Positions 2-46,533 of a DNA stretch of 64,000 bases are shown in pieces. The DNA comes from Convolutriloba macropyga (lineage: Eukaryota). Location of the stretch: positions 36,952,001 to 37,016,000 of the forward strand of contig NC_134480.1 of the NCBI RefSeq assembly GCF_964194025.1, read 5' to 3'. How positions within the stretch are numbered: the stretch's first letter is position 1; each line of letters starts with the position of its first letter. Position numbers and translations under genes: made by a program. The notes beneath the pieces are model-generated. The model saw nothing but the letters and a program-made list of their open reading frames with translations, had not been told where the DNA came from and ran no database searches.

Positions 2-640
2 AAACATGCCTCACTAAAGCACCCCCAGACCATTGGAGCAGTAGAACGATCTCACGGACCACTGAAGCGAATATTGAAGCTCAATACTGAGGAACAATGG
101 AAAGATTGGCATAAATATGTTCCATTAGCAACGTTCATTCATAATACTTCATACCATTCAGCAACAAATTGTTGTCCTTCAACTTTATTCCATGGCAGAG
201 AATCAATAAAACCCCTTGACATTAGGTTCTCCAGAAAAGTATTGGATGCAGTAGCAGTAAATTCTGATTTTGTCAATGAACTGCAAGACGCCATGGTGCA
301 TAAATTTGGAGAAAACAAAGAAAAACTGACGACTGCTTACTTGAAAAACAAAAAGTATTATGACCAAAAAGCCTCAGCAAAACCCATTCCGGAGAAATCA
401 TTCTGTTTACTTTTGAATCCTAAGCTACTAGAACAGTCAACAGTAATAGCTTCCCAAGTTCAGAAATGGCTACCGCTATATAAAGTGGAAAAAGCCCTTA
501 CTGATTCTAATTACATCATTCAAAGTAAAAAAGAATTATACACAATGTGTTCACCGCATCAGATTGAAGCCAATTAAGCCAAGTGAAACTCCTGAAGACC
601 TTAAAGTAATTAACCCTACAAAATTTCAACCTGATCCGTC
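2..640 (+). pseudogene. Gypsy integrase C-terminal half (catalytic Glu region + GPY/F-like module), frameshifted near 520
   Basis: Frame 2 reads KHASLKHPQTIGAVERSHGPLKRILK...WHKYVPLATFIHNTSYHSA..CPSTLFHGRE (HPQT.G.VER and W...L....F.HN...HS...P..L..GRE integrase motifs), then QKWLPLYKVEK..SNYII. After a frameshift it continues KVKKNYTQCVHRIRLKPIKP. Confidence 0.9.
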
Positions 641-744
641 TTCCAAAACTCGCTAGTGGCTATGATAAATCAGATTTTAATATCATTTTTGAGCTAATAT
701 GTCAAGTCTTCGACCCTCTACCCATAACCATCTACATCCACTAG
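641..744 (+). pseudogene. Macrodomain C-terminal remnant (copy 1; rest deleted)
   Basis: Reads LPKLASGYDKSDFNIIFELICQVFDPLPITIYIH*; joined to the integrase tail at a GTC microhomology (CTGATCCGTC|TTCCAAAACT). Confidence 0.85.
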
Positions 745-2510
745 CATGTACAGACCCAGTGCAGTCTAGCAGTACCCTCTATTTGCCCCAAAAGCCCAAC
801 AAGCCTGAGTAACTTAGCCCTAAAGCCCAAAAATCACCCAAAATTCGGAAAATTTCGACATCAAATTCTAGTTATTTTGATATATCTCAAGAAATACTTG
901 TCCAAACCTGGATTAATCTATTGTTCTGAAAAGCCCTCATCAAGTAGAAGCGATTCCAGCTATAATTGACCCCTCTCAACTCGTTCTAGGTACCAAAAAC
1001 TTAGCCCAAAGTTGACCCTTCCAAAAATCCTAGGTTCACCTCAGAAAAACAGTCATAAAATTGTGAAAAATGCCCCGATCATTCCAAATGTTTGCGCTGC
1101 AGCATTTTTTAAGCCGGGGAACCGACATGCAAATTTTGAAGCGATTTGAAGAACTTTAAAAATTGAGTGACGCTTGAGCCCCTGAATTTTGACACTTTTC
1201 GAATCCGCACGAATTCGATCATAATTCCTACAAAAAACCTCCAATTGACCTTTTTTATAGCCCTAGACCATCCTACTGCTCACGTTAGACGTCCCAGTAC
1301 CCAACAATTCCGTCAAAAATCAATAAAAGTTGAGTTATGACAAAAATACTGAACCCTACCAAAGTGCGTTAAAATTGATTAAAATGTAGTGTAAATTATA
1401 TCCCAAAAATATGCCAAAAACTGTTCCAACTGCCTCCAGCAGCTACTCCCAGCAGCCACCCGCATGGTACAACCTCAAACAACCATAAAAACCCAATATT
1501 GCTAAGTATATGTTGACAAATGACGAAAAAATGAAAATTGCGCTTCTGCTTCAATTCACTGCTTCAAAAATTTTGTAATTTTATTTCCCACCTGACCCGA
1601 TTAAAGCAACCTATACCCCCTACAATTCTAGTGCAACCCTCCACTAGCCTTGTAGTACCATAAAACCAGTCCTAGCTCATCCCAGTATCAGCCATGAAGA
1701 CTTAAACCCAAATAAGCTCTGAAATTGCAACAATTTTGTCAGAAAAATTCAGTTTTTTCCCACTAGAGTCTAAATTATTAACTTCTGACAGCAATTAATT
1801 ATACCATCAGCACCGCATATATATCTCTCAGAATATGCACTCCCAGTCCCCTAGTGCCAATACAAGCTGAGAAAAGACTGCCAAAGTAACGAAAATCACA
1901 AAAAATTTAGTGTTTTTTCTGGAAAAATTGATCAAAAATGCATTTTAATACCCGAATATGCCCAGTTTTATTGTTTACTCAGTTAGCCCTACTCATGAGC
2001 AGTCAAACCATAGTTATTTCAATAATTTTGAACAAGTTTTTCATAACCTCATAGCCAATAACCTATCCCCTATCTGAGCCTTTTCAAAAAACCCAGGTTC
2101 ACTGCAGCAAAAACGTTATAACTCGTGAAAAAATACTCAAAACCGCCCCTGACGACCTTGAAGTAATTAACCCTACGAACTTTCAACCTGATCCGTCGAG
2201 AAGACAACACATGGGACCGGATTTGTTTGATAAACATATCCCGGAACTGATAAATGAACATGAAAAGGAAACCCATCAATCAAAAAGAGTGAAACCAGAT
2301 CCAGTTAAAGTGACCATAAATGTCCCCCTAGGTTGACCATTAGCAGGACCAGTAGCAGCAGCACCTCCAGCAGCACCACTGGCCCCACCAAGGGTAATAG
2401 CACCAGCCGTTAGACCACGAACAGCTCCAGTACATCTTACAACAAACCCTTACCTAACCAACCAAGTTAGAAGATCAGGCAGTCCTAGACCGAAAAATGC
2501 ACGTGCCAGA

Positions 2511-3329
2511 TTGGAACAAGAAGAAAAACGTGAAGCAATAAAAGCATCAGCACAAGCATCAAAACAATCAAATACACCAACTAGAGAGACAAAATTAGAT
2601 CAAGTTAGAGCTAGTATAGCCAAATATTCAGGAAAAAAGCCCAGCAGCTCAGCAAACAGACCAGTAACCAGATCTCAAACGAAAAACACTTCACCAGGCT
2701 CTTCAAACCAAAACTTAAATCATTTTAGTCAAGAAATAAATGCAACATATCTAAGTTCACCAACAGATATCTTATACTCTCCACACTCTTTTGCAAACTG
2801 TATATCAGCAGACCTTGCAATGGCAAAGGGGTTAGCCAGACAAGTCAAAAGTTGGTACCCAGCAGCCCCAAGTGCAATCAGACTTAGATATCCACCAGAT
2901 ATTGGCTCAGTTTTAATCTACTTTGACCCCATTTCCGAACGTTATATCTTCAGTTTAGTCACCAAAGTTAGGTACTACCACAAACCCACATACGAATCTG
3001 TATTAGCAAGTCTCTATGAATTGAGAGAAATAGTAATAGATGCAGGAATATCACACTTAAGTCTTCCAAAACTCGCTAGTGGCTATGATAAATCAGATTT
3101 TAATATCATTTTTGAGCTAATATGTCAAGTCTTCGACCCACTAGCATGTACAGACCCAGTGCAGTCTAGCAGTACCCTCTATTTGCCCCAAAAGCCCAAC
3201 AAGCCTGAGCAACTTAGCCCTAAAGCCCAAAAATCACCCAAAATTCGGAAAATTTCGACATCAAATACTAGTTATTTTGATATATCTCAAGAAATACTTG
3301 TCCAAACCTGGATTAATCTATTGTTCTGA
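2511..3329 (+). CDS. Pol C-terminal tail with TARG1/OARD1 (Poa1p-like) macrodomain, copy 2; last strand replaced through a 23-bp deletion; TGA upstream at 2334-2336
   Basis: FANCISADLAMAKGLA, RYIFSLVTKVRYYHKPTYESV and GISHLSLPKLASGYDK align by eye to TARG1 [37 protein letters not shown] and GVTDLSMPRIGCGLDR. Confidence 0.85.
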   Translation: MEQEEKREAIKASAQASKQSNTPTRETKLDQVRASIAKYSGKKPSSSANRPVTRSQTKNTSPGSSNQNLNHFSQEINATYLSSPTDILYSPHSFANCISADLAMAKGLARQVKSWYPAAPSAIRLRYPPDIGSVLIYFDPISERYIFSLVTKVRYYHKPTYESVLASLYELREIVIDAGISHLSLPKLASGYDKSDFNIIFELICQVFDPLACTDPVQSSSTLYLPQKPNKPEQLSPKAQKSPKIRKISTSNTSYFDISQEILVQTWINLLF

Positions 3330-4600
3330 AAAGCCCTCATCCAGTAGAAGCGATTCCAGTTATAATTGACGCCTCTCGAGCCGTTCTAGGTACCAAAAAC
3401 TTAGCCCAAAATTGACCCTTCCAAAAATACTAAAGTCACCACAGTCATAAAATTGTGAAAAATGCCCCGATCATTCCAAATTTTTGCGCTGCAGCATTTT
3501 TCAAGCCGAGGAATCGACATGCAGATTTTGAAGCGATTTGAAGAACTTTAAAAATTGAGTGACGCTGGAGCCCCTGAATTTTGACACTTCGAATCCGCAC
3601 GAATTCGATCATAACTCCTACAAAAAACCTCCAATTGACCTATTTTATAGCCCTAGACCATCCTACTGCTCACGCTTGACGTCCCAGTACCCAAAAATTC
3701 CGTCAAAAATCAATAAAAGTTGAGTTATGACAAAAATACTGAACCCTAACAAGTGCGTTAAAATTGATTAAAATGTAGTGTAAATTATACCCCAAAAATA
3801 TGCCAAAAACTGTTCCAACTGCCTCCAGCAGCTACTCCCAGCAGCCACCCGCATGGTACAACGTCAAACAACCATAAAAATCCAATGTTGCCAAGTATAT
3901 GTTGAAAAATGACGAAAAAATGAAAATTGCGCTTCTGCTTCAATTCACTGCTTCAAAAATTTTATCATTTTATTTCCCACCTGACCCGATTAAAGCAACC
4001 TATACCCCCTACAACCCTAGTGCAACCCTCCACTAGCCTTGTAGTACCATAAAAACCAGTTCTAGCTCATCCCAGTATCAGCCATGAAGACTTAAACCCA
4101 AATAAGCTCTGAAATTGCCACAATTTTGTCAGAAAAATTCAGTTTTTTCCCACTAGAGTCTAAATTATTAACTTCTGACAGCAATTAATTATACCATCAG
4201 CACCGCATATATATCTCTCAGAATATGCACTCCCAGTCCCCTAGTGCCAATACAAGCTGAGAAAAGACTGCCAAAGTAACGAAAATCACAAAAAATTTAG
4301 TGTTTTTTCTGGAAAAATTGATCAAAAATGCATTTTAATACCCGAATATGCCCAGTTTTATTGTTTACTCAGTTAGCCCTACTCATGAGCAGTCAAACCA
4401 TAGTTATTTCAATAATTTTGAACAAGTTTTTCATAACCTCATAGCCAATAACCTATCCCCTATTTGAGCCTTTTCAAAAAACCCAGGTTCACTGCAGCAA
4501 AAACGTTATAACTCGTGAAAAAATACTCAAAACCGCCCCTGACGACCTTGAAGTAATTAACCCTACGAACTGTCAACCTGATCCGTCGAGAAGACAACAC

Positions 4601-5718
4601 ATGGGACCGGATTTGTTTGATAAACATATCCCGGAACTGATAAATGAACAGGAAAAGGAAACCCATCAATCAAAAACAGTGAAACCAGATCCAGTTAAAG
4701 TGACCATAAATGTCCCCCTAGGTGGACCATTAGCAGGACCAGTAGAAGCAGCACCTCCAGCAGCACCACTGCCCCCACCAAGGGTAATAGCACCAGCCGT
4801 TAGACCACGAACAGCTCCAGTACATCTTACAACAAACCCTTACCTAACCGACCAAGTTTGAAAATCAGGCAGTCCTAGACCGAAAAATGCACGTGCCAGA
4901 TTGGAACAAGAAGAAAAACGTGATGCAAAAAAAGCATCAGCACAAGCATCAAAACAATCAAATACACCAACTAGAGAGACAAAATTAGATCAATTTAGAG
5001 CTAGTATAGCCAAATATTCAGGAAAAAAGCCCAGCAGTTCAGCAAACAGACCAGTAACCAGATCTCAAACGAAAAACTCTTCACCAGGCTCTTCAAACCA
5101 AAACTTAAATCATTTTAGTCAAGAAATAAATGCAACATATCTAAGTTCACCAACAGATATCTTATACTCTCCACACTCTTTTGCAAACTGTATATCAGCA
5201 GACCTTGCAATGGCAAAGGGATTAGCCAGACAAGTCAAAAGTTGGTACCCAGCAGCCCCAAGTGCAATCAGACTTAGATATCCACCAGATATTGGCTCAG
5301 TTTTAATCTACTTTGACCCCATTTCCGAACGTTATATCTTCAGTTTAGTCACCAAAGTTAGGTACTACCACAAACCCACATACGAATCTGTATTAGCAAG
5401 TCTCTATGAATTGAGAGAAATAGTAATAGATGCAGGAATATAATACTTAAGTCTTCCAAAACTCGCTAGTGGCTATGATAAATCAGATTTTAATATCATT
5501 TTTGAGCTAATATGTCAAGTCTTCGACCCACTAGCATGTACAGACCCAGTGCAGTCTAGCAGTACCCTCTATTTGCCCCAAAAGCCCAACAAGCCTGAGC
5601 AACTTAGCCCTAAAGCCCAAAAATCACCCAAAATTCGGAAAATTTCGACATCAAATACTAGTTATTTTGATATATCTCAAGAAATACTTGTCCAAACCTG
5701 GATTAATCTATCGTTCTG
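4601..5718 (+). pseudogene. Pol tail + TARG1-like macrodomain, copy 3 (stops at 4859-4861 and 5441-5443)
   Basis: ORFs 4601..4861 and 4901..5443 are in the same frame and match copy 2; a TCA>TAA change truncates the macrodomain. Confidence 0.85.
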
Positions 5719-6999
5719 AAAAGCCCTCATCCAGTAGAAGCGATTCCAGCTATAATTGACCCCTCTCGACCCGTTCTAGGTACCAAAAACTTAGCCCAAA
5801 GTTGACCCTTCCAAAAATCCTAGGATCACCTCAGAAAAACAGTAATAAAATTGTGAAAAATGCCCCGATCATTCCAAATGTTTGCGCTGCAGCATTTTTC
5901 AAGCCGAGGAACCGACATGCAAATTTTGAAGCGATTTTAAGAACTTTAAAAATTGAGTGACGCTTGAGCCCCTGAATTTTGACACTTTTCGAATCCGCAC
6001 GAATTCGATCATAACTCCTACAAAAAACCTCCAATTGACCTATTTTATAGCCCTAGACCATCCTACTGCTCACGCTTGACGTCCCAGTACCCAAAAATTC
6101 CGTCAAAAATCAATAAAAGTTGAGTTATGACAAAAATACAACCCTAACAAAGTGCGTTAAAATTGATTAAAATGTAGTGTAAATTATACCCCAAAAATAT
6201 GCCAAAAACTGTTCCAACTGCCTCCAGCAGCTACTCCCAGCAGCCACCCGCATGGTACAACGTCAAACAACCATAAAAACCCAATGTTGCCAAGTATATG
6301 TTGAAAAATGACGAAAAAATGAAAATTGCGCTTCTGCTTCAATTCACTGCTTCAAAAATTTTGTCATTTTATTTCCCACCTGACCCGATTAAAGCAACCT
6401 ATACCCCCTACAACCCTAGTGCAACCCTCCACTAGCCTTGTAGTACCATAATAACCAGTCCTAGCTCATCCCAGTATCAGCCATGAAGACTTAAACCCAA
6501 ATAAGCTCTGAAATTGCCACAATTTTGTCAGAAAAATTCAGTTTTTTCCCACTAGAGTCTAAATTATTAACTTCTGACAGCAATTAATTATACCATCAGC
6601 ACCGCATATATATCTCTCAGAATATGCACTCCCAATCCCCTAGTGCCAATACAAGCTGAGAAAAGACTGCCAAAGTAACGAAAATCACAAAAAATTTAGT
6701 GTTTTTTCTGGAAAAAGTGATCAAAAATGCATTTTAATACCCGAATATGCCCAGTTTTATTGTTTACTCAGTTAGCCCTACTCAAGAGCAGTCAAACCAT
6801 AGTTATTTCAATAATTTTGAACTAGTTTTTCATAACCTCATAGCCAATAACCTATCCCCTATCTGAGCCTTTTCAAAAAACCCAGGTTCACTGCAGCAAA
6901 AACGTTATTACTCGTGAAAAAATACTCAAAACTGCCCCTGAAGACCTTTAAGTAATTAACCCTACCAACTGTCAACCTGATCCGTCGAGAAGACAACAC

Positions 7000-8391
7000 A
7001 TGGGACCGGATTTGTTTGATAAACATATCCCGGAACTGATAAATGGACAAGAAAAGGAAACCCATCAATCAAAAACAGTGAAACCAGATCCAGTTAAAGT
7101 GATCATAAATGTCCCCCTAGATGGACCATTAGCAGGACCAGTAGAAGCAGCACCTCCAGCAGCACCACTGGCCCCACCAAGGGTAATAGCACCAGCCGTT
7201 AGACCACGAACAGCTCCAGTACATCTTCCAGTATTTGATTCTTCAAGCTCAGATGAAGCAATTCCTAATTTATTTGAAGAAAATAGTAGTTCAGATGAAA
7301 ACCTAGCTGACCTGAATCTAGATGCTGAACAAATAGCAAGAATACTGGTTGATCCACTAATTGCTGATGAAATTCGACAGCAAGAACCAGAAAATCCTGT
7401 TCCTCTAGTATCATCCCAATCAGATGATGAAATGTTTTCACCACTCCAGCAACCTCAGCCAGCAATAGTACCATTAGATGTTGAGTCCCCTCCAGAAACA
7501 CGAGAAGAACAATTTGCGTTAACTGACAGAAAAATAAGAGCGCGACCTTATAATCCTAAACGAAAACCAGAGAAAAGTGCATTCAAATCACTAGACTACC
7601 AACAGCGAAAAAATGTACGCGGATTTAAATGCGATAGAGAATTAATGTTGCATGAAGAAGATAGAACAAACCTTTACCTAACCAACCAAGTTAGAAGATC
7701 AGGCAGTCCTAGACCGAAAAACGCACGTGCCAGATTGGAGCAAGAAGAAAAACGTGAAGCAATAAAAGCATCAGCACAAGCATCAAAACAATCAAATACA
7801 CCAACTAGAGAGACAAAATTAGATCAAGTTAGAGCTAGTATAGCCAAATATTCAGGAAAAAAGCCCAGCAGTTCAGCAAACAGACCAGTAACCAGATCTC
7901 AAACAAAAAACTCTTCACCAGGCTCTTCAAACCAAAACTTAAATCATTTTAGTCAAGAAATAAATGCAACATATCTAAGTTCACCAACAGATATCTTATA
8001 CTCTCCACACTATTTTGCAAACTGTATATCAGCAGACCTTGCAATGGCAAAGGGATTAGCCAGACAAGTCAAAAGTTGGTACCCAGCAGCCCCAAGTGCA
8101 ATCAGACTTAGATATCCACCAGATATTGGCTCAGTTTTAATCTACTTTGACCCCATTTCCGAACGTTATATCTTCAGTTTAGTCACCAAAGTTAGGTACT
8201 ACCACAAACCCACATACGAATCTGTATAAGCATGTCTCTATGAATTAAGGGAAATAGTAATAGATGCAGGAATATCACACTTAAGTCTTCCAAAACTCGC
8301 TAGTGGCTACGATAAATTAGATTTTAATATCATTTTTGAGCTAATATGTCAAGTCTTCGACCCTCTACCCATAACCATCTACATCCACTAG
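7000..8391 (+). pseudogene. Most complete pol tail (Pro-rich, acidic and basic linker) + TARG1-like macrodomain, copy 4; one premature TAA at 8227-8229
   Basis: 409-aa ORF; the same frame continues past the TAA to ...LPKLASGYDKLDFNIIFELICQVFDPLPITIYIH* (TAG 8389-8391). Confidence 0.88.
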
Positions 8392-8689
8392 CTTGTACAG
8401 ACCCAGTGCAGTCTAGCAGTACCCTCTATTTGCCCCAAAAGCCCAACAAGCCTGAGCAACTTAGCCCTAAAGCCCAAAAATCACCCAAAATTCGGAAAAT
8501 TTCGACATCAAATACTAGTTATTTTGATATATCTCAAGAAATACTTGTCCAAACCTGGATTAATCTATTGTTCTGAAAAGCCCTCATCCAGTAGAAGCGA
8601 TTCCAGTTATAATTGACGCCTCTCGAGCCGTTCTAGGTACCAAAAACTTAGCCCAAAATTGACCCTTCCAAAAATACTAAAGTCACCAC

Positions 8690-11300
8690 AGTCATAAAAT
8701 TGTGAAAAATGCCCCGATCATTCCAAATTTTTGCGCTGCAGCATTTTTCAAGCCGAGGAATCGACATGCAGATTTTGAAGCGATTTGAAGAACTTTAAAA
8801 ATTGAGTGACGCTGGAGCCCCTGAATTTTGACACTTCGAATCCGCACGAATTCGATCATAACTCCTACAAAAAACCTCCAATTGACCTATTTTATAGCCC
8901 TAGACCATCCTACTGCTCACGCTTGACGTCCCAGTACCCAAAAAACCCGTCAAAAATTGATAAAAGTTGAGTTATGACAAAAATACTGAACCCTACCAAA
9001 GTGCGTTAAAATTGATTAAAATAGTGTAAATTATACCCCAAAAATATGTCAAAAACTGTTCCAACTGCCTCCAGCAGCTACTCCCAGCAGCCACCCGCAT
9101 GGTACAACCTCAAACAACCATAAAAACCCAATATTGCCAAGTATATGTTGAAAAATGACGAAAAAATGAAAATTGCGCTTCTGCTTCAATTCACTGCTTC
9201 AAAAGTTTTGTCATTTTATTTCCCACCTGACCCGATTAAAGCAACCTATACTCCCTACAACCCTAGTGCAACACCCCACTAGCCTTTTAGTGCCATGAAA
9301 ACCAGTCCTAGCTCATCCCAGTATCAGCCATGAAGACTTAAACCCAAATAAGCTCTGAAATTGCCACATTTTTGTCAGAAAAAATTCAGTTATTTCCCAC
9401 TAGAGTCTAAATTATTAACTTCTGACAGCAATTAATTATACCATCAGCACCCCCGCATACATATCCCTTAGAATATGCACTGCCAGTCCCCTAGTGCCAA
9501 TACAAGCTGAGAAAAGACTGCCAAAGTAACGAAAATCACAAAAAATTTAGTGTAATTTCTGGAAAAAGTGATCAAAAATGCATCTTAATACCCGAATATG
9601 CCCAGTTTTATTGTTTACTCAGTTAGCCCTACTCTTGAACAGTCCAACCATAGTTATTTCAAAAATTTTGAACAAGGTTTTCATAGCCTCATAGCCAATA
9701 ACCTATCCCCTATCTGAGCCTTTTCAAAAAAACCCAGGTTCACTGCAGCAAAAACGTTATAACTCGTGAAAAAATAGTCAAAACCACCCAAATTTTTGCG
9801 CTGCAGGGGTTTTTGAGAAAGCGATTCACCAATTTTGAGCTCAATCGAAGCATTTTAAAAATTGAGTGACGCTGGGGCTCTCAATTTTTGAGACTTTTTG
9901 AAAATTTACGTACATGTTCATAAATTTCGAAATGTTGATCGAAAACCCAATATTATTAGCTTAAAACATTTGTATGCTCAAGTTCTACATGCCCATATCA
10001 AAAATTTTGAAAATTGTTAAGTAAAATGTTGAAATAATAGCAAAAAACTGAAGCCTACCAAACTCTTCTCAAATTAGTCAAAATAGAGCCCGATTTAGAC
10101 CAGAAAAATAGTACTAAATATCCGATTTATGAGCCCAAATCCAATATTCAGTCTCCCTAGAAGTTGTCCAAGCCTAATAAACCCATACAATCTCACAGAA
10201 ATGCATAAATGTTGAAAAAAGTGAAAAAACCGAAATCTTCACATATTTGACCAAATTTAGTCCAAAATTATAAAGTGAAAAACTCCACATAATAAAGTCA
10301 AATCATGCACCAAACTGCACCAATAGCTGCCACCAACATAGTACTCACTAGTATGACTCTCAGTTACCGTGAAAATTCAATCATTTCCAACCTATGTCAA
10401 CTTATGCACCAAACATGACGCACCTCAAGTAAAAATCTAGCAAGTTCAAAAAAAAACTGGACCAAAACACATGTTAATCACTCCAAAAGCTACCAAAATG
10501 CTACCTCTGATAGCCACTGATATCAGTACTAACAGTTAGCACCTGATTTTGGCCACTAGAGAATCACCAGACCGACACATGTCTCGAAGAAGCTCAAATA
10601 TTAGAAAAATCATGTCTGAAAATTAGCATTTTGGACGTAAAAACCAATGTTCTGACCCGATAAATAGCTTCAGATCCTATAATTCAGTAATATACATTAG
10701 TACCAAGCATAGACAGTACCATTTTAACCATTTAATGCCGATAATGTATGAAGAGTGATGATTTATTCAGACCGAAATTTCATGATTCAAAAATAGCCAG
10801 GTTCAGATCACGAAAACAGTCATAACTTTGCGAAAAATGCCCAAATTGCGCCAAGTTTTTTGCGCTGCAGCGTTTTTTGAGCTACTAAAGCGATCTGCCA
10901 ATTTTGAGCCCGATTGGAGCAATTTAAAAATTGAGTGACGCTGGAGCCCTCAAATTTTCGCATTTTTCGTTTTCTCAAACATGAATAAAAAAGTTGACCA
11001 AAAAGTGCCCAAAAACCTGAATTTATAGCATAGTAATAACCCACCGATGTCTACCGAGTGGGCCAAGCCAAAACATTTGCCCAAAGTGCAATAAAAATTG
11101 AAAAATTCACATATATGCAACACCAGTCTTGATGTGGAAAAATGACCTAATTCACGAAAAAATTACATGTAAAAATTAGTACCAAATCAGTTCAAATTAC
11201 ACACAAATGCTGCTAATAACGAGGACAAGTACCTAGAACCATTAGAACCAGTTTATGACCAGTATTTCACAAGTAAAGTTAAGTTAATGCTCAAGAATGA
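8690..11300. repeat. Old, diverged ~1.065-kb tandem units in the pol-env spacer with a conserved ~150-bp core
   Basis: GCGCTGCAG at 8733, 9798 and 10862 (spacing 1065, 1064); ATTGAGTGACGCTGG at 8801, 9861 and 10930. Flanks are recognisably homologous but diverged. Confidence 0.85.
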
Positions 11301-11516: not shown

Positions 11517-12996
11517 TCAATCCTCATCGGCGCTATCCTCAGCCACGCTACCACCACTAGTACTCTGACCGGCCTGACCCCTTGTCCTAGTAGAACGAGT
11601 CAAGTTTCGCTCAGCATCATCCAACCTGTTTTAATGTAATTACAATGAATAAAATGCCTTAAAATTACACGAAACCTCGATAAATTCTGCATAAAAACAA
11701 CTAAATACTCACTTCGGAAAGTCCACAATTGGCTCACCATGGTATCGATACTCATTGTCGATGAATTTCCCGATGCACTGGATCAGTACAGCTGGAGCGG
11801 TGGCCCTAGCATTGACAGAATGCCGATAACATACCCAGCCGCCCCCCATTTCCTGATTATACTGCCAATAGATATTGACATTGCATCCGAGGAAATATGC
11901 CATACCGACAAACTAAACAGTAAAACCTCAGATTATGCCTACATACACATGCACGTATCAGAATTACCACGCATTGAAGGAAAATTTACCCAGAACTCGG
12001 CCAACGACCCATTGTCTTCACTCGCATTAATCTCATACTCTGACACAAAGTACCCTAACTGGTCCTCCACAAGCTCAGAGAACCCAGGCGAACGCATCTT
12101 GGCCACAATAGCCAAGCGTAGAGCACGAACATTATGCTTGGGAACTTTCTTGTCTGCAATAAATTGGTTAAATGTGAATTAGAATTCTAAATCTACTGAA
12201 AATTACGATAAAATATAACAAATACCTGACTTCCGACCAGTTAACGTGTAGTACAGAGCACTGAGAGCACACAGACTACCAACTGCGGCCCTCACACCAG
12301 CCGCACCAAGCCACTTTGGAGTTTTAAATGACACTACGTCCACATACTCAGCGTAAATGTCATTGTAGAACTCGTATCCCAATTCGGCACACACGTTTGC
12401 GCGAAGATTCGCACGGAAGAAAGTACACTGCACCTCTTTGCCGTGCATCTTCTTCACGAAACATGGCACACATTCACGATTGGCTCTAAATATCAAGCAA
12501 AAACCACTTCACAAGTAATAATATACACATCAAACTAAAGAAAAATGAATAAAAATATACATAATTATTATACACATATGCAATTACCTTTCAACAGCAG
12601 CCTGCAATCTCCCATCGAGCGTGGAAAGAAGAACCCAGCAGTTTTCAGGCGATCGACTTGTGATCTCACACGAGTAAAGTGCTTTGCAGAAGCACTGAAC
12701 CCGACATGAAGTGCAGCCAATTCCTGAGACACCATCTGCTGAGTAGGAATTTCCTTCTCCTGAACTTGCATTTCGCTGCCCACCTTCACTTCCACCTTGT
12801 ACAGTAAAATTTCCCGATTTACGGCAAATTCAGACGTCCCCACATTCTTTGATCTTAGAACCATATGTTCTGCTTTGTCCCGATAAGCTCGTCGTTCATC
12901 AGCAGTCCGAACAAATGGTGGATACACCCATTCAGATTGAGATAACGACTTGCTTCGCAAGAAAGCCACAAAATGTTCATACTGGGCAACATCCAT
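11517..12996 (-). CDS. Five-exon antisense gene (~379 aa): integrase-type N-terminal/HHCC zinc-finger module + OTU-like cysteine-protease domain + low-complexity tail
   Basis: Exons 12996-12588, 12485(or 12483)-12226, 12153-11990, 11912-11713, 11625-11517, separated by GT-AG introns of ~102, 72, 77 and 87 nt. Phases join at introns 2-4. Intron 1 needs the second AG of TTTAGAG or a 1-nt deletion in exon 1. Motifs: LHVGFSASAKH..FFFP..CVPC; GSLCALSALYYTLTG..HNVRALRLAIVAKM..MAYFLGCNVNIY..WVCY..YHGEPIV. Confidence 0.75.
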
Positions 12997-13460
12997 GATT
13001 AACAGTGATTATCTGAAAATTCAAAAATCGAGTCAAACTAGTTATTAAGCAAGCAAAGCGTTAAAGTGTTAAGTCAAAAATGAACAATCACAGGAATGAA
13101 AACGCACAAATAGAACAAATTATGCAATAAATGCCAAGAACGTTTAATTACCATGCCACAACGATCACTAATTGTTAATGACACATCCCGTAAAACACAC
13201 AACACCGTTCTGAACACACAATTACACCCTTCACTACATTTACTTATTCACTACGCCTCACTAATTCTTCCTTTTATCCCCTACTTACGTCCTTATTCTC
13301 TCACAAAACAAGTTTGATATATACTAATTACAATGATATTAGTAGCACCTTATTAAATATTAATAGCACCAAGTATTTTAGTCAGTATATTCAGGAAAGC
13401 TAATCAGAACTACAACTACAAGTCAGTCAATAAATAATATAAATAAATATAAATAACTAG

Positions 13461-13847
13461 TTATACTGCCGTCTCCTCCATTTCAACTCCTCCCTCATCT
13501 TCTTGATCTACAATCTCTTCCCTCTCCCTCCTCCTTCCTGCACATCTTCCCCTCCTTCTCCTTCTCCACATCCCAACAATCCCGAATAATATCAATAATA
13601 ATATCCATACTAATAATAATATTGATTCCCCATCCCAACCATCTCCTCCATCTTCTATACAATTGACTATTATCGTATTATTATGAATATTGAACTCTGG
13701 GTGAACTAAACGAGACCAGTGAACCCAGTTCCTTGACACATACCTGGTCCCGTTGTTTTAGCATCCCAGAGTGATATTATTCGGCCCGACAGTAATATTA
13801 AAGCACATAATTAGTATCAGAATAATCTGAAAAACTCGGAAAAACAT
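13461..13847 (-). pseudogene. Small antisense type-I membrane glycoprotein ORF (128 codons, one in-frame TAA at codon 30)
   Basis: ATG at 13847: MFFRVFQIILILIMCFNITVG (signal-like), sequons NIT/NIT/NGT/NNT, TM ILLLVWILLLILFGIVGMW, RRRRR stop-transfer, acidic tail ending ETAV*. Confidence 0.65.
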
Positions 13848-14188
13848 GTAAAGACTGCATAATTCGACCCCCCAACCACTATCCCCATCATCACACACCC
13901 ACCATTCAACCACATAACCATGTTTCAACATGTTTAAACACCATATTTAGTAGTAATATCAATAAACACACACACACACAAACACACTTGATATAAAAGT
14001 AGAGTACACCTGAAACAAATAAACACCACATAAACAAGTGCCAAATTGAAGAAATTAGAACTAGAAGCCTGAGTACATTAAACAAATGAGCAAATAAACA
14101 CCGGAAAGCCAAATAGAATCCAATTGAACATCCTGAAGAGCCACATCAGCAGAAGATTGTCCTGAAACATAGTTGTTAATATTGAAAC

Positions 14189-16483
14189 ACGAAAACGTTA
14201 CTTACAATTGTGTTGAATCTCGTACTTTTCGGCCCCATTTTTGAGACGCCGATCAACACAGAAGAAGCACTGGCTCAAGGAATAATCTTTCACAAGGAAC
14301 GAAAGATTTTAATCACTGAGAAGTTCATCAACGCGGAATTTTTAGTACCGTTTCCTCGTTACAATTTCACGATACGACGACAAGTAGAGGCTCTACTTCT
14401 TGACCTCTCAAAGAAATGGATAACACAGTCAGAATTCTGCAACATGACTTACAGTACCACGTATCGGAATCAGACAGATGCCTTCAATGTTGACTGGCTT
14501 TACTCGAAGATCCTCAAGGAAACCATCGAAGCCGAACTTGAAGTTTCTAAACTACGCAATGAGACCGAAAAACTCCTCACCAGAGTCAAAGAGGACCCCC
14601 GAAACAGACAGAAAAGAGCCGCCCCGCTTGCGATAGCAGCCGTAGTCGCTGAAATTGGACTCTTTGGTCCAGGAATAGCAATGAGCAGCGGAGGATGCGG
14701 TGGAATCACAGGAATTTTTGGCTCATGCCAACGAACGTCTCAAAATGCCGAAAACATCGATAGATTAGCAAATAGTTTTAATAGCCTCAACGACTATGTC
14801 ATGGAAATCGGCGCACAAACCGATGAGAAATTCTTTCTAGTTGCTGACGAACTTGCAAAGGTTTATAAAGTTGAAAACGAAATGCAAGAAAACCAAAACA
14901 CAAACTGGAAACTAGTTGAGGAACAATTCGCAATTGTCGACCACAATCTGAATGCAATAGCAACCTGCATGGAAATTCAATCAACACAACAACAACTGAA
15001 CTTTAACTTTGACACAGCAGCATCATTACTTCTTACCCTCTATGCAGATATTAAAAGTTATCGAGCAGCCTTATACTCTTTCCGAATTAATGTTATAAAT
15101 GCAATTCCTACTCTACTTGACAAACGCCTTCCAATCTCTTTAGTACCGCGAAAATCTTTGATAAAGATCCTGGATGCAGTCCATGATAGCCAAAAGAACG
15201 CCCCAGATCGTCCCACTTTGGCAATACCCATGACTGACATACTTTCGTACTACGATGCGAAATTAGTACAAGAGATTTCGACAGTTGAGGACGGACTTTT
15301 ACTGACACTAGCCATTCCCCTGGCCTCTAGCCAGTCGGTGTTTGAAGTTTATCGTGCAAATGTAATCCCTATGCCCCAGAAGGACTCTGTAGACGCCTTA
15401 CAATGGGTGATAGAGGGAGAGTACTTAGCAATCTCTGAAGGACAGATGGAAACTACAGTACTGACGAAAGCCCAGTATGACAACTGTCTTGGATCGCAAC
15501 GATACCGAATATGTCATGAGACAATGGAAACCCACCTTGGATTCTCCTCGTGCCTAGCAACCCTCAAGTTTCATCATGCCATTACAGCATTGAAAGTATG
15601 TGACACAGAGAAGGTTGTGTTACCCAACCCAGAACGAGCACAGAACCTTGGATACGGAATTTGGCTCTTAACATCAGCTTCAAGTGATTTTACCCTTAGT
15701 GAGATTGGTACGGACGAGAATGGCCAACAGACCAACATTCCTCATAAAGGTTGTAACATCTGTTTAATCGCATTAAAATGTGAACATACAATGTTCAGTG
15801 ACCACATTAAAATTCGAGCCGATTTACAAAGTTGTCAGTATCTTCCCGCGAAGCGAATCAATGTAAAATTGCCAGATCCACTAGAACATTTAATTGACTC
15901 AGTTCCAAACATAAACGAACTTCCGAAGTACGAATCAAGCAATGAAGCAAATCTAGACTTATTGAAGGAAGTTAAAACAGAATTCATCTACTCCAATCGA
16001 AAGTTATCAACAGAATCACTAGATGACATAGCAAAGCCCATTACCACTGAAATGAAATCATTTAAGCCCGCACTAATTGACAAACTTGAATCTTACGTTC
16101 CTATCAAGCTTTCTCTCTCGCTAACAATTATTGTCGTTATCGGAAATCTAGCTCTACATATTCTCTTCATGTACTTATACCATAAAGTAGCTTTTTTACG
16201 ACGAATGGTACCCAATTTCATGAAGCTTAACGGAACCAATGTACCACTAAATCCAGTAGTTTCCGTCCCCAAACATCTGAAAGCAGAAGTAGTTACAACT
16301 CTAGCCAAACAACTCAAGCAACCACCAACAGTCATCTCTCCAGAAGAACTTGGAACCCTCAAACGACAACGACGAAATTCCATGCCTGCAACTTCTACCA
16401 TGTCATTCAACACCATGGACCGATTTAACACAGACGATGAACTGGACAACCAAGCTCAATCTCGAGAGGAGAGTATGCTTTAA
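14189..16483 (+). CDS. env: Envelope / class I viral fusion glycoprotein (errantivirus env / baculovirus F-like)
   Basis: Uninterrupted frame of ~760 codons. Hydrophobic N-terminus KTLLTIVLNLVLFGPIF, furin site RQKR followed by hydrophobic peptide AAPLAIAAVVAEIGLFGPGIAM, heptad region, Cys-rich ectodomain, TM LSLSLTIIVVIGNLALHILFMYLY and cytoplasmic tail. No ATG ahead of the signal peptide (ACG at 14189, GTG at 14210). Confidence 0.9.
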   Translation, partial: TKTLLTIVLNLVLFGPIFETPINTEEALAQGIIFHKERKILITEKFINAEFLVPFPRYNFTIRRQVEALLLDLSKKWITQSEFCNMTYSTTYRNQTDAFNVDWLYSKILKETIEAELEVSKLRNETEKLLTRVKEDPRNRQKRAAPLAIAAVVAEIGLFGPGIAMSSGGCGGITGIFGSCQRTSQNAENIDRLANSFNSLNDYVMEIGAQTDEKFFLVADELAKVYKVENEMQENQNTNWKLVEEQFAIVDHNLNAIATCMEIQSTQQQLNFNFDTAASLLLTLYADIKSYRAALYSFRINVINAIPTLLDKRLPISLVPRKSLIKILDAVHDSQKNAPDRPTLAIPMTDILSYYDAKLVQEISTVEDGLLLTLAIPLASSQSVFEVYRANVIPMPQKDSVDALQWVIEGEYLAISEGQMETTVLTKAQYDNCLGSQRYRICHETMETHLGFSSCLATLKFHHAITALKVCDTEKVVLPNPERAQNLGYGIWLLTSASSDFTLSEIGTDENGQQTNIPHKGCNICLIALKCEHTMFSDHIKIRADLQSCQYLPAKRINVKLPDPLEHLIDSVPNINELPKYESSNEANLDLLKEVKTEFIYSNRKLSTESLDDIAKPITTEMKSFKPALIDKLESYVPIKLSLSLTIIVVIGNLALHILFMYLYHKVAFLRRMVPNFMKLNGTNVPLNPVVSVPKHLKAEVVTTLAKQLKQPPTVISPEELGTLKRQRRNSMPATSTMSFNTMDRFNTDDELDNQAQSREESML

Positions 16484-17070: not shown

Positions 17071-17696
17071 TGTCACCCCCCTATTTCGTCCCTCATAGTT
17101 ACGTGATGATATTCCTTAAAATATCCATAATTAAGTGCTTTATATTAATTAATATTCATTTAGTTTCACGGCCATATATATATCCAGTATTTCCATCTAG
17201 GCCTGATACCCCAAAATTTGTTTATGTTTACGAAAAACAACCGCAGAGTGACAGTTTTACTAGCAAACATATCAAGTGCCTAAATGCCTCAATGTTTACT
17301 TTTTTGAGTTTCTTGAAGATAAATTCGCATAATTAGTAAACAACTTTATGAGAGATTATATACTTGGTGAAGTAATTATTCTGATAAAGAAGGTGCTAAT
17401 ATGGAACTTGTATATGTACTTAACAAACATCAAGAGACGTACAAAAGCCGGAAATTGCCCAACTTGTAGATCAGTAAATATTTGCGAAGGTCCAATACAA
17501 CTCAAGGCACAGTCCTGCGGAACTTACGATCAGCAGAACACCGGAGAAACAGCCTGACTACCAGTTGCTAATAAAACTCAGCAAAAACTCAAACTCCTTA
17601 TTCTATCATTGAAAACTTTGGCTTTAATTTCTGATTTATTAAATAAAGATTGAACTGGAAATTCTTCCTAAAATTAATAAGTTAAAACAGGCTACA
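17071..17696 (+). repeat. Probable 3' LTR of the Gypsy/env element
   Basis: Starts TGTCAC ~590 bp after the env stop; TATA-like run at ~17175; AATAAA at ~17570 and ~17642; candidate ...ACA ends at 17688 or 17696. The partner LTR is not in the window and the PPT is weak. Confidence 0.4.
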
Positions 17697-20104
17697 TTAG
17701 AGTTATAGTATGGCTAAATAAAGCTCTAAAACCCAGGGCAACTAGTGGATGTATCGCGCATCCGAACCGCTCAATAAAAGGCTATTACTAGCTAAGTTTA
17801 TTCAAAATATATCCGCTATAAATCGCACTGTGAAACACCAAAATAAGTCCTTGAAAAATGGCAATTAATCACATTATTTACTGCTATTATTAACCTCAGA
17901 AAACACCATGAGGAACACCTAGAAGTCAGTGCGTAACAGAGCGTTTATGGGTTTAAATTATTTCATGTAAGCCTCCAATGCTTACTTGAGATAATTCGAA
18001 CCTGGACTGAATTTACTCTGATTATTTAGAAAAGTTGATATCACATTTTGATTCGAATTTTATAATGTAATTTCTGTATATAACCAAAAAGGTAGAACAT
18101 ACTTGTAGTAAAATAAAACAATATGTATTTTTTTCATGAATCATAGAAATTATATATACATTGTTTTGATTTAGTTCATGTTAATTTGGATTGATACTTT
18201 CTTAACAGATTAATTACTATGTTTTACTATGTTTCAATTAATTTTACTACTAAAAATAAAATCAACTTTTAAAAACTCACATCTTACTGTTTAATAACGG
18301 ATTTTTTCCAGCTGAAGAATCAGAAACTGCTGATAGATGCAAAAGACAAGTAATGCGATAGTACTAGGGACTTAAAAATAGACAACTCTTGTCTTCAGAA
18401 GAATTCGGTTCTTGGTCAGATAAATTAATCGAATATTCGAAGGCATATTTTTTTCATCTGAATATCGAAGTCATCTGGTTATCTGGTTATCATTTTTTTC
18501 ATCTGGTTATCATTTTGAATACCAAATTATCTACGGGATATCTGTGAGCGTAACAGATTTCCTTCGCATTTAAAAGAAACTACTTCATGATTGCTTCTTG
18601 AAAAATGATTAAACTCTGTTTGTCAGAACTCATAGTTAACTAAATTTTTCTCCATACACTTTTCAGTTCCTTCCAAAATTTTCTCATTACATATATTGAA
18701 TCAGCTCTTCTGTTCAGTTGAAAAAGTCGTTCACGTATAGGCTAAAAACTAGGCTCTAAAACGGTTGCATGAGATACACCAATATTAAACATTACATTTC
18801 TGGAAAACCTACCATTTTGCTTTACTCTCTGTTCTCCGTTTGCAAAAAAAAATTGAAAAAATTTGAAAAATCGTAGGATTCAATCGTTTTAAGAAAATTT
18901 ATGAGAAATCGAGTCGCATTCTTTGCTAAAACCTAACAAAAAACTGTAGTGTTTTTGTTTTCTTCCAAATTGTCTGTTATAGTTTCAACTAGTTGTAAAA
19001 GTGATTCTGTTGCTGACTTCTTTTTCGGAAAACCCAACTAGGTTGTTGTTAATGATTCGATTTCCTTCTCTGTGTCCTGTAACTTGGTTCAAGAGCAGGC
19101 GCTCAAAAACATTGGCTAGCATTGGGGTGTTCTAATACACGGAGGGAGAGCTTTCCGTTGTGGATGCCCGGCGGAAAGTTTGCTGTGTTTTGCGCTATCG
19201 CTTTTGCCTTACCCAGTGAAACGAAGCTTCAAAAAACCTTACTGAGATGTTGCTCAGATTCTTTGGTGTGAAAATGTCAAAAGATGGGTAAAAACCTGCG
19301 CAATTCCTCCACAAATTTCAGGAACGTACCTTCTTGACCACAATATTATCAAGCCGTGTCACAATATTATCAAGACGTAGCTGATAAATATCTGGCTAAG
19401 GCATCCCAGTGCTTGGAAGAATCTCAAGATTATGAATATTTACAAAGTTTTGTTTCACCGAGTGCAAATTGTCTCCAGGTTTGAATCAAGTCAAATGAGG
19501 CTTAAATAAAATTATTCTGAATAGTCAAATGAGATCTTGAAATGTAGCACTGCAAGATATTGATGTCAACAAAGCATGTTATCAAAATTATCGAGCAATT
19601 TTTTGAACGATAATTTGCCATGTATATCCAGTCGATGCAGTTAGCGTGCACCCACTGAGCTGGGACGAACCAACCTTAATTTATCAGGCTTTTTACTAAT
19701 ACACTATTTTTGCAGTGATAATTTTGAGACATTTTTATGCTGCTCAAAAGGATAGTAACTTGCGAGTCTTAACTCTCCGTTAAATTGTTTGTCCAGCCTC
19801 TATGTTGAGTTTGGTGGAGGTTTCTTTGTTTAGTCGGTTAAAGGAATCATGATCATGTAATTTGTACAACATTTGTAAAACTTCAAATATCCGTAAATAC
19901 AAGGCCTGAAGAAGAATTTATTTAGCAAAATTATGCATTATCATATATGACAGGGCAAAGATTTCACTGCAAGATGTTGCAAGATCATAACTAATCTTGC
20001 AATTTTTTCCTGTGAAATCTCGCAAGATCTTGCAAGGTGAACATCGTGGTGCAGTCACCAGTTTTCACCTCTTACGGTTTTTGTTTAGTTGCAATGTTAT
20101 GTAG

Positions 20105-35488: not shown

Positions 35489-36040
35489 TTTGGTCCGCCG
35501 ACAAATAGGTTAAGGATAAAATAGTCAAATCATTAGGCACCAAAAGCATTAACTCTCTCAAAAAATTCAGCAAAAAATCTAAAAGGGGAAACTTAAAGGG
35601 GAAGTTAAAAGCGGACCCCCCACTAGATAACACATCCCCCCTCATGTTATACAAGTTGATTAACTTGTATAACAAGGTTGATTAACCTAATTCTGAGACC
35701 CGGTAAAGTTATCTAGTGGGAGAACTATATCTCAAGGGTTACAAAACTTTTTGTGAAACTTCGGGGCAAACAATCTCTTTCTCAGTTCTCGCGGAGAACT
35801 AGAAATTTTTAGTTTAGGTTTGCTCCCCCGAAGTAATAGCACTAAGTTCGCGCGCAAAAATTGGTCGCATTTTTTGAAGGGGGATTAAGTGAAACCCGAT
35901 TTCCCATCTTTTGCGTTCTTTTAGTGTGTTTTTAGCTTTCAGCACAGCAAAATCCACGAAAAAGACAAACGAAACTAATACGAATAAAGACCAGCATCAA
36001 AGACACAAAAAAACGCCCTCAAAGGCAACAGCAAGTCAAA

Positions 36041-37240
36041 ATGTCCAATCTTGAAATGCAGAAACAGTCGCGGGGATCACACCGCAGCGTTGCTACAAGG
36101 TTTAACAATGAGGCTGAAAATATCCTGTCAAAAGATCTAGACACCATTTCAGAAGCGGACATCAACAGACTAAATCAGGTAGCGACACTTCTCACCCGAA
36201 AGCAGAATTTTCTGGTAACTTTGAACCAAGAACTTCAACAGAACTTGACGGAGGCGGAAGCACTGGACAATGACATTCTGGAGTCCGAGGAAGTTGATGA
36301 AAAGTTGACACAGAACATCGATGCAATCAAACGCTTCACGAAACGTTTTGAGGGACCTTCAACAGCAGCAGATACTTCAACGCCATCTATTTCAACGCTC
36401 TCCGAGGAACTCAGCCAACATCAAGTTACCAAAACTCAATCTGCCAGTTTTTTCGGGTAATTATATGGAATGGACTTCGTTCTTTGATTTGTTCAAAGGA
36501 GCAGTCATCGACAACAGTTCTCTTCAAGGAAGTCAGAAGTTGCAGTATCTGAAAGCATCTGTAAAAGGTGATGCCGCCAAACTGCTTGCCTCGATACCAG
36601 TTACCGATCACAATTTCGACATTGCTATGAATACTCTGATAAACAGATACGAGAACAAGAGGATCATCATTCGCACACACCTGCATTCAATTGTTTCATA
36701 TCGATCACTGACAACCGATAATGCCAGAAACTTAAGAAATTTAATTGAAGCAATGGACGAACATCGACTTGCCTTGCAGAATTTGGGAGAACCAGTCAAT
36801 AGTCAAGACATCTTTTTTGTTTACTTGATCAGTGAGAAGCTGCCTACAGAGACAAGAAAACAATGGGAGCTGTCTTCAAAAGGCAAAGAACCTCAAAGGT
36901 ATGCAGAGCTCAGGTTTTTCTTAGAAGAACGCGCACAAGCACTCGAGGCAGCTGCGCCAAATGGAGTAGGAGCGACAAAAACTCAAATGAACGGGAACCA
37001 ACGACATTTACACACACATTTGGCGACTTCCGAGCAACAATGCGAATGTTGTGCAGAAACGCACAAAATTTTCAAATGCGGAAAGTTCAAGAAACTTTCA
37101 GTAAGGGAACGTGCAGAGCTGATAAAGGATAAAGGTTAGAAAACTCTGTTTCAATTGTCTGCGACCGGGACACAGATCAGAAGATTGTGATGGATCGAAA
37201 TGCAAGCAATGTGGTAGAAAACATCATACTCTTCTTCATC
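36041..37240 (+). pseudogene. gag: BEL/Pao gag (DUF1759-type capsid region + three Cys/His knuckles), frameshifted
   Basis: KLPKLNLPVFSGNYMEWTSFFDLF, QKLQYLKASVKGDA, CECCAETHKIFKC, CFNCLRPGHRSEDC, CKQCGRKHHTLLH; frame breaks near 36400 and 37135. Confidence 0.9.
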
Positions 37241-37383
37241 GTGAAAACATTCACAACAAAAACACCAATCAGCAAACAACTAGCGGAACAAACAGCACTC
37301 AAGTAAATGACAAACAGAAGAAGAACGCTATAACAACAACAGCAATTGCAAAAGCTAAGGATGAAAACAAGTTCACAGGAGCT

Positions 37384-45700: not shown

Positions 45701-46533
45701 TAATGGCGTGAAGGGCGTTTCTTAATCAAAAGTGTTTGACACCCTCAGTCAAAGTCCCCCCTCAACACTCCCATTGCTCACCCTCACGCACCTGTCGATA
45801 TGAAACCTTCTCTCATCTAGCCTTCGCAAGCCTACACCTAATCGCTTGCCCCACTTCCCCCCACACACACACAAACCAAAGCCTCCAAGGTTGATGTTGC
45901 CTCCATGATCAAACCAAAGCCTCCATGGTTGATGTTGCTGGCTCAGTGCAAACTAAAAATTTCATGAAAAGATTCCAGAAACATTCCTAGATATTTTCAT
46001 TTTTAAGAAGGAAACAAAGCATGCATATGCATTTAATTGTAATTTTGACATTGTGTAAATGAATGGTAAAAGTAAAAGTTTGCTGAGTTGATTTTCATTT
46101 TGTTACAAGTATGTTTTCACATTTGGTTATAATTTTGTATCACTTGTTTCATCCAAATCCAAAAAAAATGTTGTCTCACTTTATTAAAAGTACACTGGCA
46201 TTCACGCTTGGAACTTCAGTCCTATTTTGCTTGTCATAAAATTTTCCGTAATACAAGGTTATGCATGACTCCCGGTAATTATACAAGGTCATAGGATTTC
46301 CCATTCAGTAATCGTATATGAACTCCTAGTTTTCATGCAAAGATCATGTTTGATTTTTTGATTCGATGTAAAGATCGTACGAGGAAATCCGGTATGATTT
46401 GTATGACATCAGATTTGATCCTTGTACAAAACCTAGGAAGGGGCTAAAGAAGGTTGTTTCCTACAAATGCACTGAAAAAAGCTGAATGTGTGTTAACAGA
46501 ACTATTGTTGATCAAGAGTAATGTCTATATGTT
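42730..46533. repeat. ~835-bp tandem array, 4 full units + a partial fifth, with alternating (dimeric) variants
   Basis: GTTTGCTGAG at 42746, 43573, 44410, 45245 and 46078 (spacing 827, 837, 835, 833). Confidence 0.95.

Follow-up and report, generated by a model that had tools for sequence, protein, structure and literature searches.

The window analysed here is a stretch of 64,000 nucleotides from the 1.18-Gb genome of Convolutriloba macropyga (NC_134480.1, 36,952,001-37,016,000). It contains part of a 25-kb Gypsy LTR retrotransposon whose LTRs have the form TGT...ACA and which is flanked by a 5-bp target duplication; both features were checked in two elements. Between pol and the env-like ORF of this element sits a minus-strand gene of five exons (12996-11517; Table 1), which joins an integrase-type zinc finger to an OTU-like domain. 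We conclude that the gene is real, under selection and likely a Ginger-derived antisense accessory gene, its splicing being read from the sequence. Elsewhere the window holds a tandem array and a broken BEL/Pao element, the latter with a Gly-rich repeat insert at 40279-40727.

Table 1. Features of the window, numbered from its first nucleotide.
Feature	Position	Strand	Description
Tandem pol-tail copies	638..9600	+	Four, about 2.4 kb period, with OARD1/TARG1-like macrodomain and spacer start
Exon 5	11517..11625	-	Weakly constrained tail (dN/dS 0.58) and stop codon
Intron 4	11626..11712	-	87 nt, phase 2
Exon 4	11713..11912	-	OTU-like domain, beta-sheet part, and candidate catalytic His
Candidate catalytic His codon	11741-11739	-	Exon 4
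Intron 3	11913..11989	-	77 nt, phase 0
Exon 3	11990..12153	-	OTU-like domain, helical part
Intron 2	12154..12225	-	72 nt, phase 1
Exon 2	12226..12485	-	CxxC, site of missing DDE/GPY core, pre-OTU motif, candidate catalytic Cys
Candidate catalytic Cys codon	12271-12269	-	Exon 2
CxxC of HHCC finger	12472-12461	-	Exon 2
Intron 1	12486..12587	-	102 nt, GT..TAG, phase 2
Exon 1	12588..12996	-	ATG, integrase-type N-terminal extension (YPYY-like region), both His of HHCC finger
Exon 1 stretch one base short	12588..12625	-	38 nt against 39 nt in most copies, near 12613
HHCC His codons	12708-12706 and 12681-12679	-	Exon 1
T-rich acceptor	13013..13020	-	16 nt before ATG; AG in 30 of 30 family copies
Small antisense ORF	13461..13808	-	Single-pass membrane protein with Cys-containing ectodomain; stop at 13760-13758 in window copy
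env-like ORF	14186..16483	+	765 aa stop to stop; resembles class I F-type fusion proteins
3' LTR	17071..17938	+	5' LTR about 7.1 kb before the window; LTR identity 96.7%
Broken BEL/Pao element	35936-42232	+	DUF1759, RT, Peptidase_A17, H2C2, DUF5641
Tandem array	42730-46521		Five units of about 835 bp, 96-99% identical

The env-like ORF had no Pfam match. Its Atlas feature score to F-like clusters was 0.95, a recognition below the tool's strong threshold; among its top clusters Baculo_F occurred in 12-23% of members, and in the cluster ranked fourth Fusion_gly occurred in 82%. In the sister copy L034, Pfam recovered RT, RNase H and integrase in the Gypsy order, and a macrodomain that follows the integrase matched OARD1 (E 4.7e-15). 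Ahead of the RT in the carrier's pol (L034:1412-1750) there is also a weak dUTPase-like Pfam match (E 0.056). The tandem pol-tail copies of the window are decayed, and other copies of the element (C15, C11) show internal duplications of a similar kind. The spacer between pol and the gene contains a pair of diverged direct repeats, ~170-200 bp long (9722-9923 and 10785-10992), which sister copies have as well and which are possibly a cis signal.

The four GT-AG introns that the preliminary description had proposed were all found where it had placed them. Reverse transcription copies the sense, genomic RNA, so introns antisense to it survive retrotransposition, and those of this gene, facing away from the genomic RNA, would outlast it. 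The T-rich acceptor ahead of the start codon may mark a 5'-UTR intron or a trans-splice acceptor, and a T-rich tract with an AG 2-9 nt ahead of the ATG was found in 9 of 11 distant loci. TTTCAG-type acceptors in fact stand directly ahead of both antisense start codons (13013-13020 and 13827-13835, minus strand), with no obvious strong donor upstream of either. From sequence, trans-splicing at these two acceptors is possible.

A DNA search for the gene yielded 182 candidates, of which 40 were scored; these gave 41 matches, almost all of them full-length at 85-92% identity, and the window copy was aligned with the best 29 other copies (30 in total). The splice sites, whose conservation had earlier been named as a check, are present in 26-29 of the 29 other copies at every site: the donor GT in 29, 29, 28 and 26 for introns 1-4, and the acceptor AG in 29 (intron 1, family site), 29, 28 and 29. 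Mean pairwise identity among the 30 copies is 0.93-0.95 in exons versus 0.82-0.87 in introns. Another proposed check, dN/dS across the 30 copies, indicated purifying selection (0.23 in the proposed frame vs 1.25 and 1.6 in the two shifted frames; 0.16-0.30 in exons 1-4, lowest in exon 1 at 0.16, and 0.58 in exon 5), and pN/pS was 0.19 for variants in at least two copies vs 0.64 for private variants, all these ratios being descriptive because related copies are not independent. The low shared and higher private pN/pS suggest selection while the element replicates and neutral decay once a copy has inserted; stop variants comprised 14 private and 2 shared ones. The finger and the catalytic pair that the preliminary description had picked out were well retained, with H97, H106 and the two CxxC cysteines kept in 30, 29, 30 and 29 of the 30 copies and the candidate catalytic Cys and His in 28 each. 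The Gly of its 'YHGE' motif proved private to the window copy, the motif being H-C-E in 28 of 30 copies.

The window copy itself is damaged. It is one base shorter near 12613 than 27-28 of the 29 others; L002 and L030 likewise have 38 nt there. With the family acceptor of intron 1, a TAG ending at 12486, it runs into a stop at codon 147; the same acceptor leaves 9 of the 30 copies open, at 381 codons, the window copy not among them. The ~379 codons reported earlier can be read through only by way of a GAG acceptor at 12484, which makes the window copy the sole open one among the 30. GAG is the least used acceptor and here lies downstream of a better AG, so the window copy is probably dead. Its other damage fits this reading: the LTRs are 96.7% identical, pol is broken, the pol tail is tandemly repeated, and the adjoining small antisense ORF carries a stop. 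We regard a dead copy as most likely.

The N-terminal part points to a DNA transposon. Ginger1 transposases, according to the available text of Bao, Kapitonov and Jurka (2010, PMC2836005), have an H2C2 finger, an rve core and a C-terminal OTU or Ulp1 domain. A protein of Nucella lapillus (P0115) matches Pfam OTU and Integrase_H2C2 and its relatives carry H2C2, rve and OTU, so that the label 'Ginger1-like' for them is given by architecture alone. Against 13 such proteins, hhalign aligned our family in two colinear blocks, residues 1-125 to positions 1-131 (93%, E 2.6e-7) and residues 120-286 to positions 470-627 (98%, E 6.7e-14), the second being partly circular because the set was found via the OTU part, and the first not. 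Ginger positions ~132-469 (~340 residues, comprising the DDE core and GPY/F) have no counterpart, the point of loss lying within exon 2, some twelve residues after the CxxC, rather than at an intron. A profile of exon 1 only, independent of how the Ginger1-like set was found, gave Ginger N-termini a median score of 17.5 bits (n=17) vs 3.5 bits for local Gypsy integrase N-termini (n=37), the latter cut out by tblastn from the host genome only.

Other features of this part agree with an integrase-type module, as had been proposed. The YPYY-type region matches the profile of Ginger1-like proteins from residue 1. Both His of the finger are invariant in 12 exon-1 rows, and the CxxC is present without exception in a set of 4 rows as well as in the wider alignment of 11. 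A structural model of the N-part (pLDDT 74) was most similar to Ty3 integrase (Z 6.0, rmsd 4.2, 95 aligned) and next to foamy virus integrase (Z 5.4); winged-helix proteins trailed by no more than 1 Z unit. Foldseek returned no match to the N-part with E below 1, and an Atlas score of 0.86 to Integrase_H2C2 clusters serves as a lead only. Origin from the carrier's own integrase was considered and is less likely, the carrier pol scoring 10 bits and Ginger N-parts up to 30.

The earlier suggestion that the gene descends from a Ginger element and has lost its catalytic core is thus borne out by the two-block match, and we consider it likely, on sequence grounds, that a Ginger1-type transposase gave rise to the gene by loss of its DDE core. 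It is not itself a Ginger1 element: both the core and the terminal inverted repeats (TIRs) were tested for and are absent. Flanking Ginger TIRs (40-270 bp), which the preliminary description had said would mean an independent insertion, were absent from the four regions searched, where the longest inverted pairs were 22-27 nt at 70-82%; nor were any element ends found at which the 4-bp CCGG/CCGT target duplication of Ginger1 could be sought. Compared with Ginger1 as the available text of PMC2836005 describes it, the gene encodes, beginning at its first Met, the same succession of YPYY-type region, H2C2 finger, pre-OTU motif and OTU, and like Ginger1 it has introns; it differs in lacking the DDE core and GPY/F region (~340 aa) and the TIRs, in lying antisense within an LTR retrotransposon, and in the replacement of the Asp of D-G-N-C. 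No present-day Ginger1 donor was seen in the host genome among the best candidates scored. P0115 matched the host genome only via its integrase region, and the strongest PF02338 matches were in unrelated ORFs of ~2,500 aa. At L048-L054 the host genome has ORFs with an OTU domain, mostly ~2,500 aa long, several of them clustered on C10.

For the C-terminal part, a profile of exons 2-4 retrieved 120 proteins at E up to 0.001, and Pfam OTU was found in 13 of 14 scanned longer distant proteins, 12 of those above the cut-off. Pfam scans of single exons and partial read-throughs of the gene itself, which are the forms that were scanned in place of the spliced protein, gave no OTU or Integrase_H2C2 match, and the matches listed from a genome-wide PF02338 search do not include these loci. 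Single exons or exon profiles searched against Pfam and PDB returned nothing relevant, and the protein libraries held no full-length spliced homolog, just exon-sized or read-through pieces. A structural model of exons 2-4, read through two introns (pLDDT 62), bore out the predicted OTU fold: 30 of 31 VIA rows at Z of at least 2 are OTU-type proteases or close relatives, the top row having Z 7.0, rmsd 3.6 and 134 aligned, where Z 6-7 is a range common for VIA. Foldseek gave the same ranking, all 37 rows shown being OTU-family or OTU-containing at E 0.06 or worse, i.e. not significant. Most top VIA rows are nairovirus OTUs, tied with cellular OTUD1 and OTUD3.

In the profile alignment the candidate Cys aligns with the Cys of the Ginger OTU; the profile alignments end before they reach the His, whose equivalence is judged from motif position. 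Across the called proteins the His is kept in 12 of 12 and the Cys in 10 of 12, L065 having Phe and L072 being mis-called there; the Cys loss of L065 is not seen in its sister copy L064. As in OTUD1, OTUD3 and the nairovirus OTUs, the predicted fold has the Cys where a helix begins and the His on a late strand, and in most families the second residue after the His is Glu or Asn. Unlike them, the protein is only 9-14% identical, has H-C-E-P in place of their H-Y/F-x, and carries its OTU fused to an integrase N-terminal module. OTU deubiquitinases have a D-G-N-C oxyanion loop motif. This loop is also present in the Ginger-like rows, and here its Asp is replaced in every family, position -3 from the Cys being Gly, Phe, Tyr, Trp, Ser, His or Asn. 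Fold and Cys/His support membership of the OTU-protease-like proteins, and the encoded zinc-finger-OTU protein is a predicted deubiquitinase.

The loss of the loop Asp, the extreme divergence from known OTUs and the low dN/dS of exon 1 (0.16) would also suit a pseudo-enzyme, in which the HHCC finger acts as a dominant-negative or targeting regulator of integrase and the OTU domain as a ubiquitin-binding scaffold. We hold this to be decidedly improbable: the Cys and His are retained across families that are otherwise ~30% identical, and single-copy losses such as that of L065 are not common to sister copies such as L064. That the family encodes a functional protein of this architecture, acting through either its catalytic Cys or its finger, is very probable.

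The gene extends well beyond the window's family. From protein searches that found many further families we hand-picked 20 distant loci for diversity; in 17 of them env lies upstream and pol downstream on the opposite strand, two having env only and one pol only. A splice caller with phases set to 2, 1, 0 and 2 gave all five exons for 12 of 21 distant loci and no full call for the other nine; its calls are visibly off at one boundary in L058, L067, L069, L072, L075 and L076. Eleven aligned predicted products, 22-52% identical, share the same exon layout, and because intron lengths differ, many not being multiples of three, the frames are unreadable without splicing. Distances between OTU genes track those of pol (Mantel rho 0.66, p 0.004) and env (rho 0.76, p 0.003), with 10 rows each. 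Most families have a basic, NLS-like C-terminal tail, and the window's own family has no clear one. One library protein that shares the position of intron 2 finds matches of no more than 28-33% in the host genome, so the gene is probably present in at least one other genome.

These results also bear on whether the locus could be a Ginger element that inserted independently and is decaying, or a coincidental group of ORFs. The frameshift of the window copy agrees with such an origin. However, the same position and orientation recur in 17 of 20 distant loci, shared variants are under purifying selection, no TIR was found in the four regions searched, and the distances of the gene follow those of pol (rho 0.66) and env (rho 0.76), which leaves an origin of this kind barely credible.

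A different cargo occupies the same position in sister elements. Twenty env matches were picked away from the known places of the OTU gene, a choice by which the set gives no frequency estimate. In 10 of the 20, the spacer is ~1.0-1.2 kb and has no cassette. The other 10 have a longer spacer with an antisense ORF for the small membrane protein and then a JmjC-like ORF, of type A (L092, L102, L107, L108, L109), which resembles KDM7A/PHF8/PHF2, or type B (L096, L097, L100, L101, L104). Six of nine scanned JmjC-like ORFs match Pfam JmjC or Cupin_8 below the cut-off (E 2.6e-5 to 0.018), and for one ORF, which retains H-x-D...H, the best PDB match is KDM7A (E 1.8e-4). After the type B ORF a further conserved antisense ORF or exon of ~85-108 aa, with no Pfam match, is found in L097 (3138-3461), L100 and L104.

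The two cargoes exclude each other, a JmjC ORF being present in 0 of 25 OTU-bearing stretches and the OTU gene in 0 of 10 JmjC loci. In a midpoint-rooted FastTree phylogeny of integrase (36 rows, with L063, L066, L070 and L072 left out) they are interspersed: L092 (JmjC) and L060 (OTU) are 92% identical in integrase and differ in cargo. Even two OTU carriers, L065 and L076, which are 95% identical in integrase, share only 37% identity in their OTU proteins. The most economical history has a single ancient capture, after which the gene descended vertically and cassettes were exchanged. Both cargo types usually come after the small membrane-protein ORF, whose gene is common to OTU- and JmjC-bearing elements (L058, L060, L102, L108 and others) and whose profile also matches 10 of the 25 OTU-bearing stretches. 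Two scanned relatives of this small protein had no Pfam family. Inside the window's family its gene comes in two allele types, and different families can carry nearly identical versions of it. The capture proposed in the preliminary description is supported by these data; what it had overlooked is the frameshift, the many LTR families and the JmjC-like genes in the slot.

A shared slot is no proof of a shared target. Nonetheless, the JmjC-like genes shift the likely role of the OTU gene to counter-silencing rather than integrase regulation, and both cargoes likely help the element undo host silencing. Our best explanation, to which we give an even chance, is that this is an antisense accessory gene of env-carrying Gypsy elements, likely Ginger1-derived, encoding a predicted deubiquitinase that likely undoes host chromatin silencing. 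In this scheme, an antisense promoter near the env start would drive a transcript that is spliced to encode a protein of 330-380 aa. The integrase-type N-terminus, with the basic tail in most families though not in the window's own, would direct the protein to the nucleus. There the N-terminal extension and the HHCC finger would recruit the enzyme to element copies by binding either element DNA or integrase, and the OTU domain would strip ubiquitin from chromatin (e.g. H2A ubiquitin) or from silencing factors. The identity of the substrate matters, since removal of ubiquitin from H2B would favour silencing, not relieve it.

Another role for an active deubiquitinase would be to protect the integrase: tethered by its N-terminus to the integrase or the pre-integration complex, it would shield this from proteasomal destruction. 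Retroviral integrases are ubiquitinated, and the fold of the N-part is that of Ty3 and foamy virus integrase N-termini. Moreover, the OTU of Ginger1 is fused to the transposase itself (available text of PMC2836005), which suggests that the ancestral substrate was the transposition machinery. However, the pair L065/L076 indicates that the gene is swapped independently of the integrase, and an unrelated JmjC gene can replace it; we consider integrase protection unlikely. The F-like env, the OARD1-like macrodomain and the small membrane protein recall accessory functions of RNA viruses, and nairovirus OTUs fill most top fold rows. Together these features could mean that the protein, in the manner of a virus and in concert with the macrodomain and the small membrane protein, counters innate immune signalling that depends on ubiquitin or ubiquitin-like modifiers while the element spreads from cell to cell. 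We find this quite unlikely, as the top fold rows are tied with cellular OTUD1 and OTUD3, the DNA-binding-type N-terminus, the basic tails and the replacement by JmjC genes speak for a nuclear protein, and 10 of the 20 env-picked elements do without any cassette.

Taking counter-silencing and the exchange of cargoes together, we tentatively suggest, with less than even confidence, that these elements carry an exchangeable antisense operon composed of the small membrane protein and one 'eraser' enzyme, with cargoes swapped to escape chromatin silencing. The eraser would be either the transposase-derived deubiquitinase, aimed at element DNA by its old integrase N-terminus, or a KDM7-like histone demethylase, and the macrodomain on pol would be a third eraser. 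The acceptors before each start codon may mean a polycistronic unit resolved by trans-splicing. In having accessory genes, elements so organised would be like complex retroviruses.

If this account is true, a retrotransposon has domesticated the transposase of another transposon as an accessory enzyme, keeping its ends and dropping its catalytic core, and an animal LTR element carries a multi-intron antisense gene of a recognisable enzymatic type. Spliced antisense genes of such elements are missed by single-ORF scans. The OTU/JmjC swap in one slot predicts two routes to the removal of repressive chromatin marks and points to the marks that the host sets against these elements. It also makes a long-standing question of function directly testable, the plant antisense ORFs being without assigned function in the available text of PMC7264820 and PMC11963269.

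The carrier itself resembles the invertebrate Ty3/gypsy 'errantiviruses' (Chary and Hayashi 2026, PMC13524379) in its gag-pol-env order, F-type env, LTRs and multiple similar copies; the terms antisense, OTU, deubiquitin and macro do not appear in the main text of that account. Captured enzymes are known from several other elements, as far as the available texts describe them: an AlkB m6A demethylase in an orchid Gypsy element (PMC9289625), DEDDy/GDSL enzymes in the ORF3s of rotifer elements (PMC5408684), captured domains in the planarian Burro (PMC6431247) and TET/JBP in fungal transposons (PMC12730594). These share with our gene the capture of an enzyme, its movement between lineages and a proposed role in countering host control, whereas an OTU deubiquitinase or a spliced antisense cassette beside env is not described in the available texts. 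The literature covered, with most subscription journals, Repbase and supplements outside its scope, gave no account of the OTU gene or of the slot.

The closest parallel in layout is offered by plant LTR elements, in which Grande gene23, RIRE2 and Retand TRP28 are antisense ORFs (available text of PMC7264820 and PMC11963269). There too, according to the same texts, an antisense gene lies between pol and the 3' LTR and is kept in most copies, and that of Grande has its own promoter and a nuclear product; the word 'intron' is absent from both main texts. Our gene differs from those described there in that its host is an animal, env is also present, four introns interrupt it, its transposase donor can be traced, a recognisable enzyme fold is predicted for its product, and the cargo is swapped with JmjC-like genes. 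As a kind, it belongs with the antisense and captured accessory genes of LTR elements, and what is new here is that JmjC-like genes of sister elements occupy the same antisense slot.
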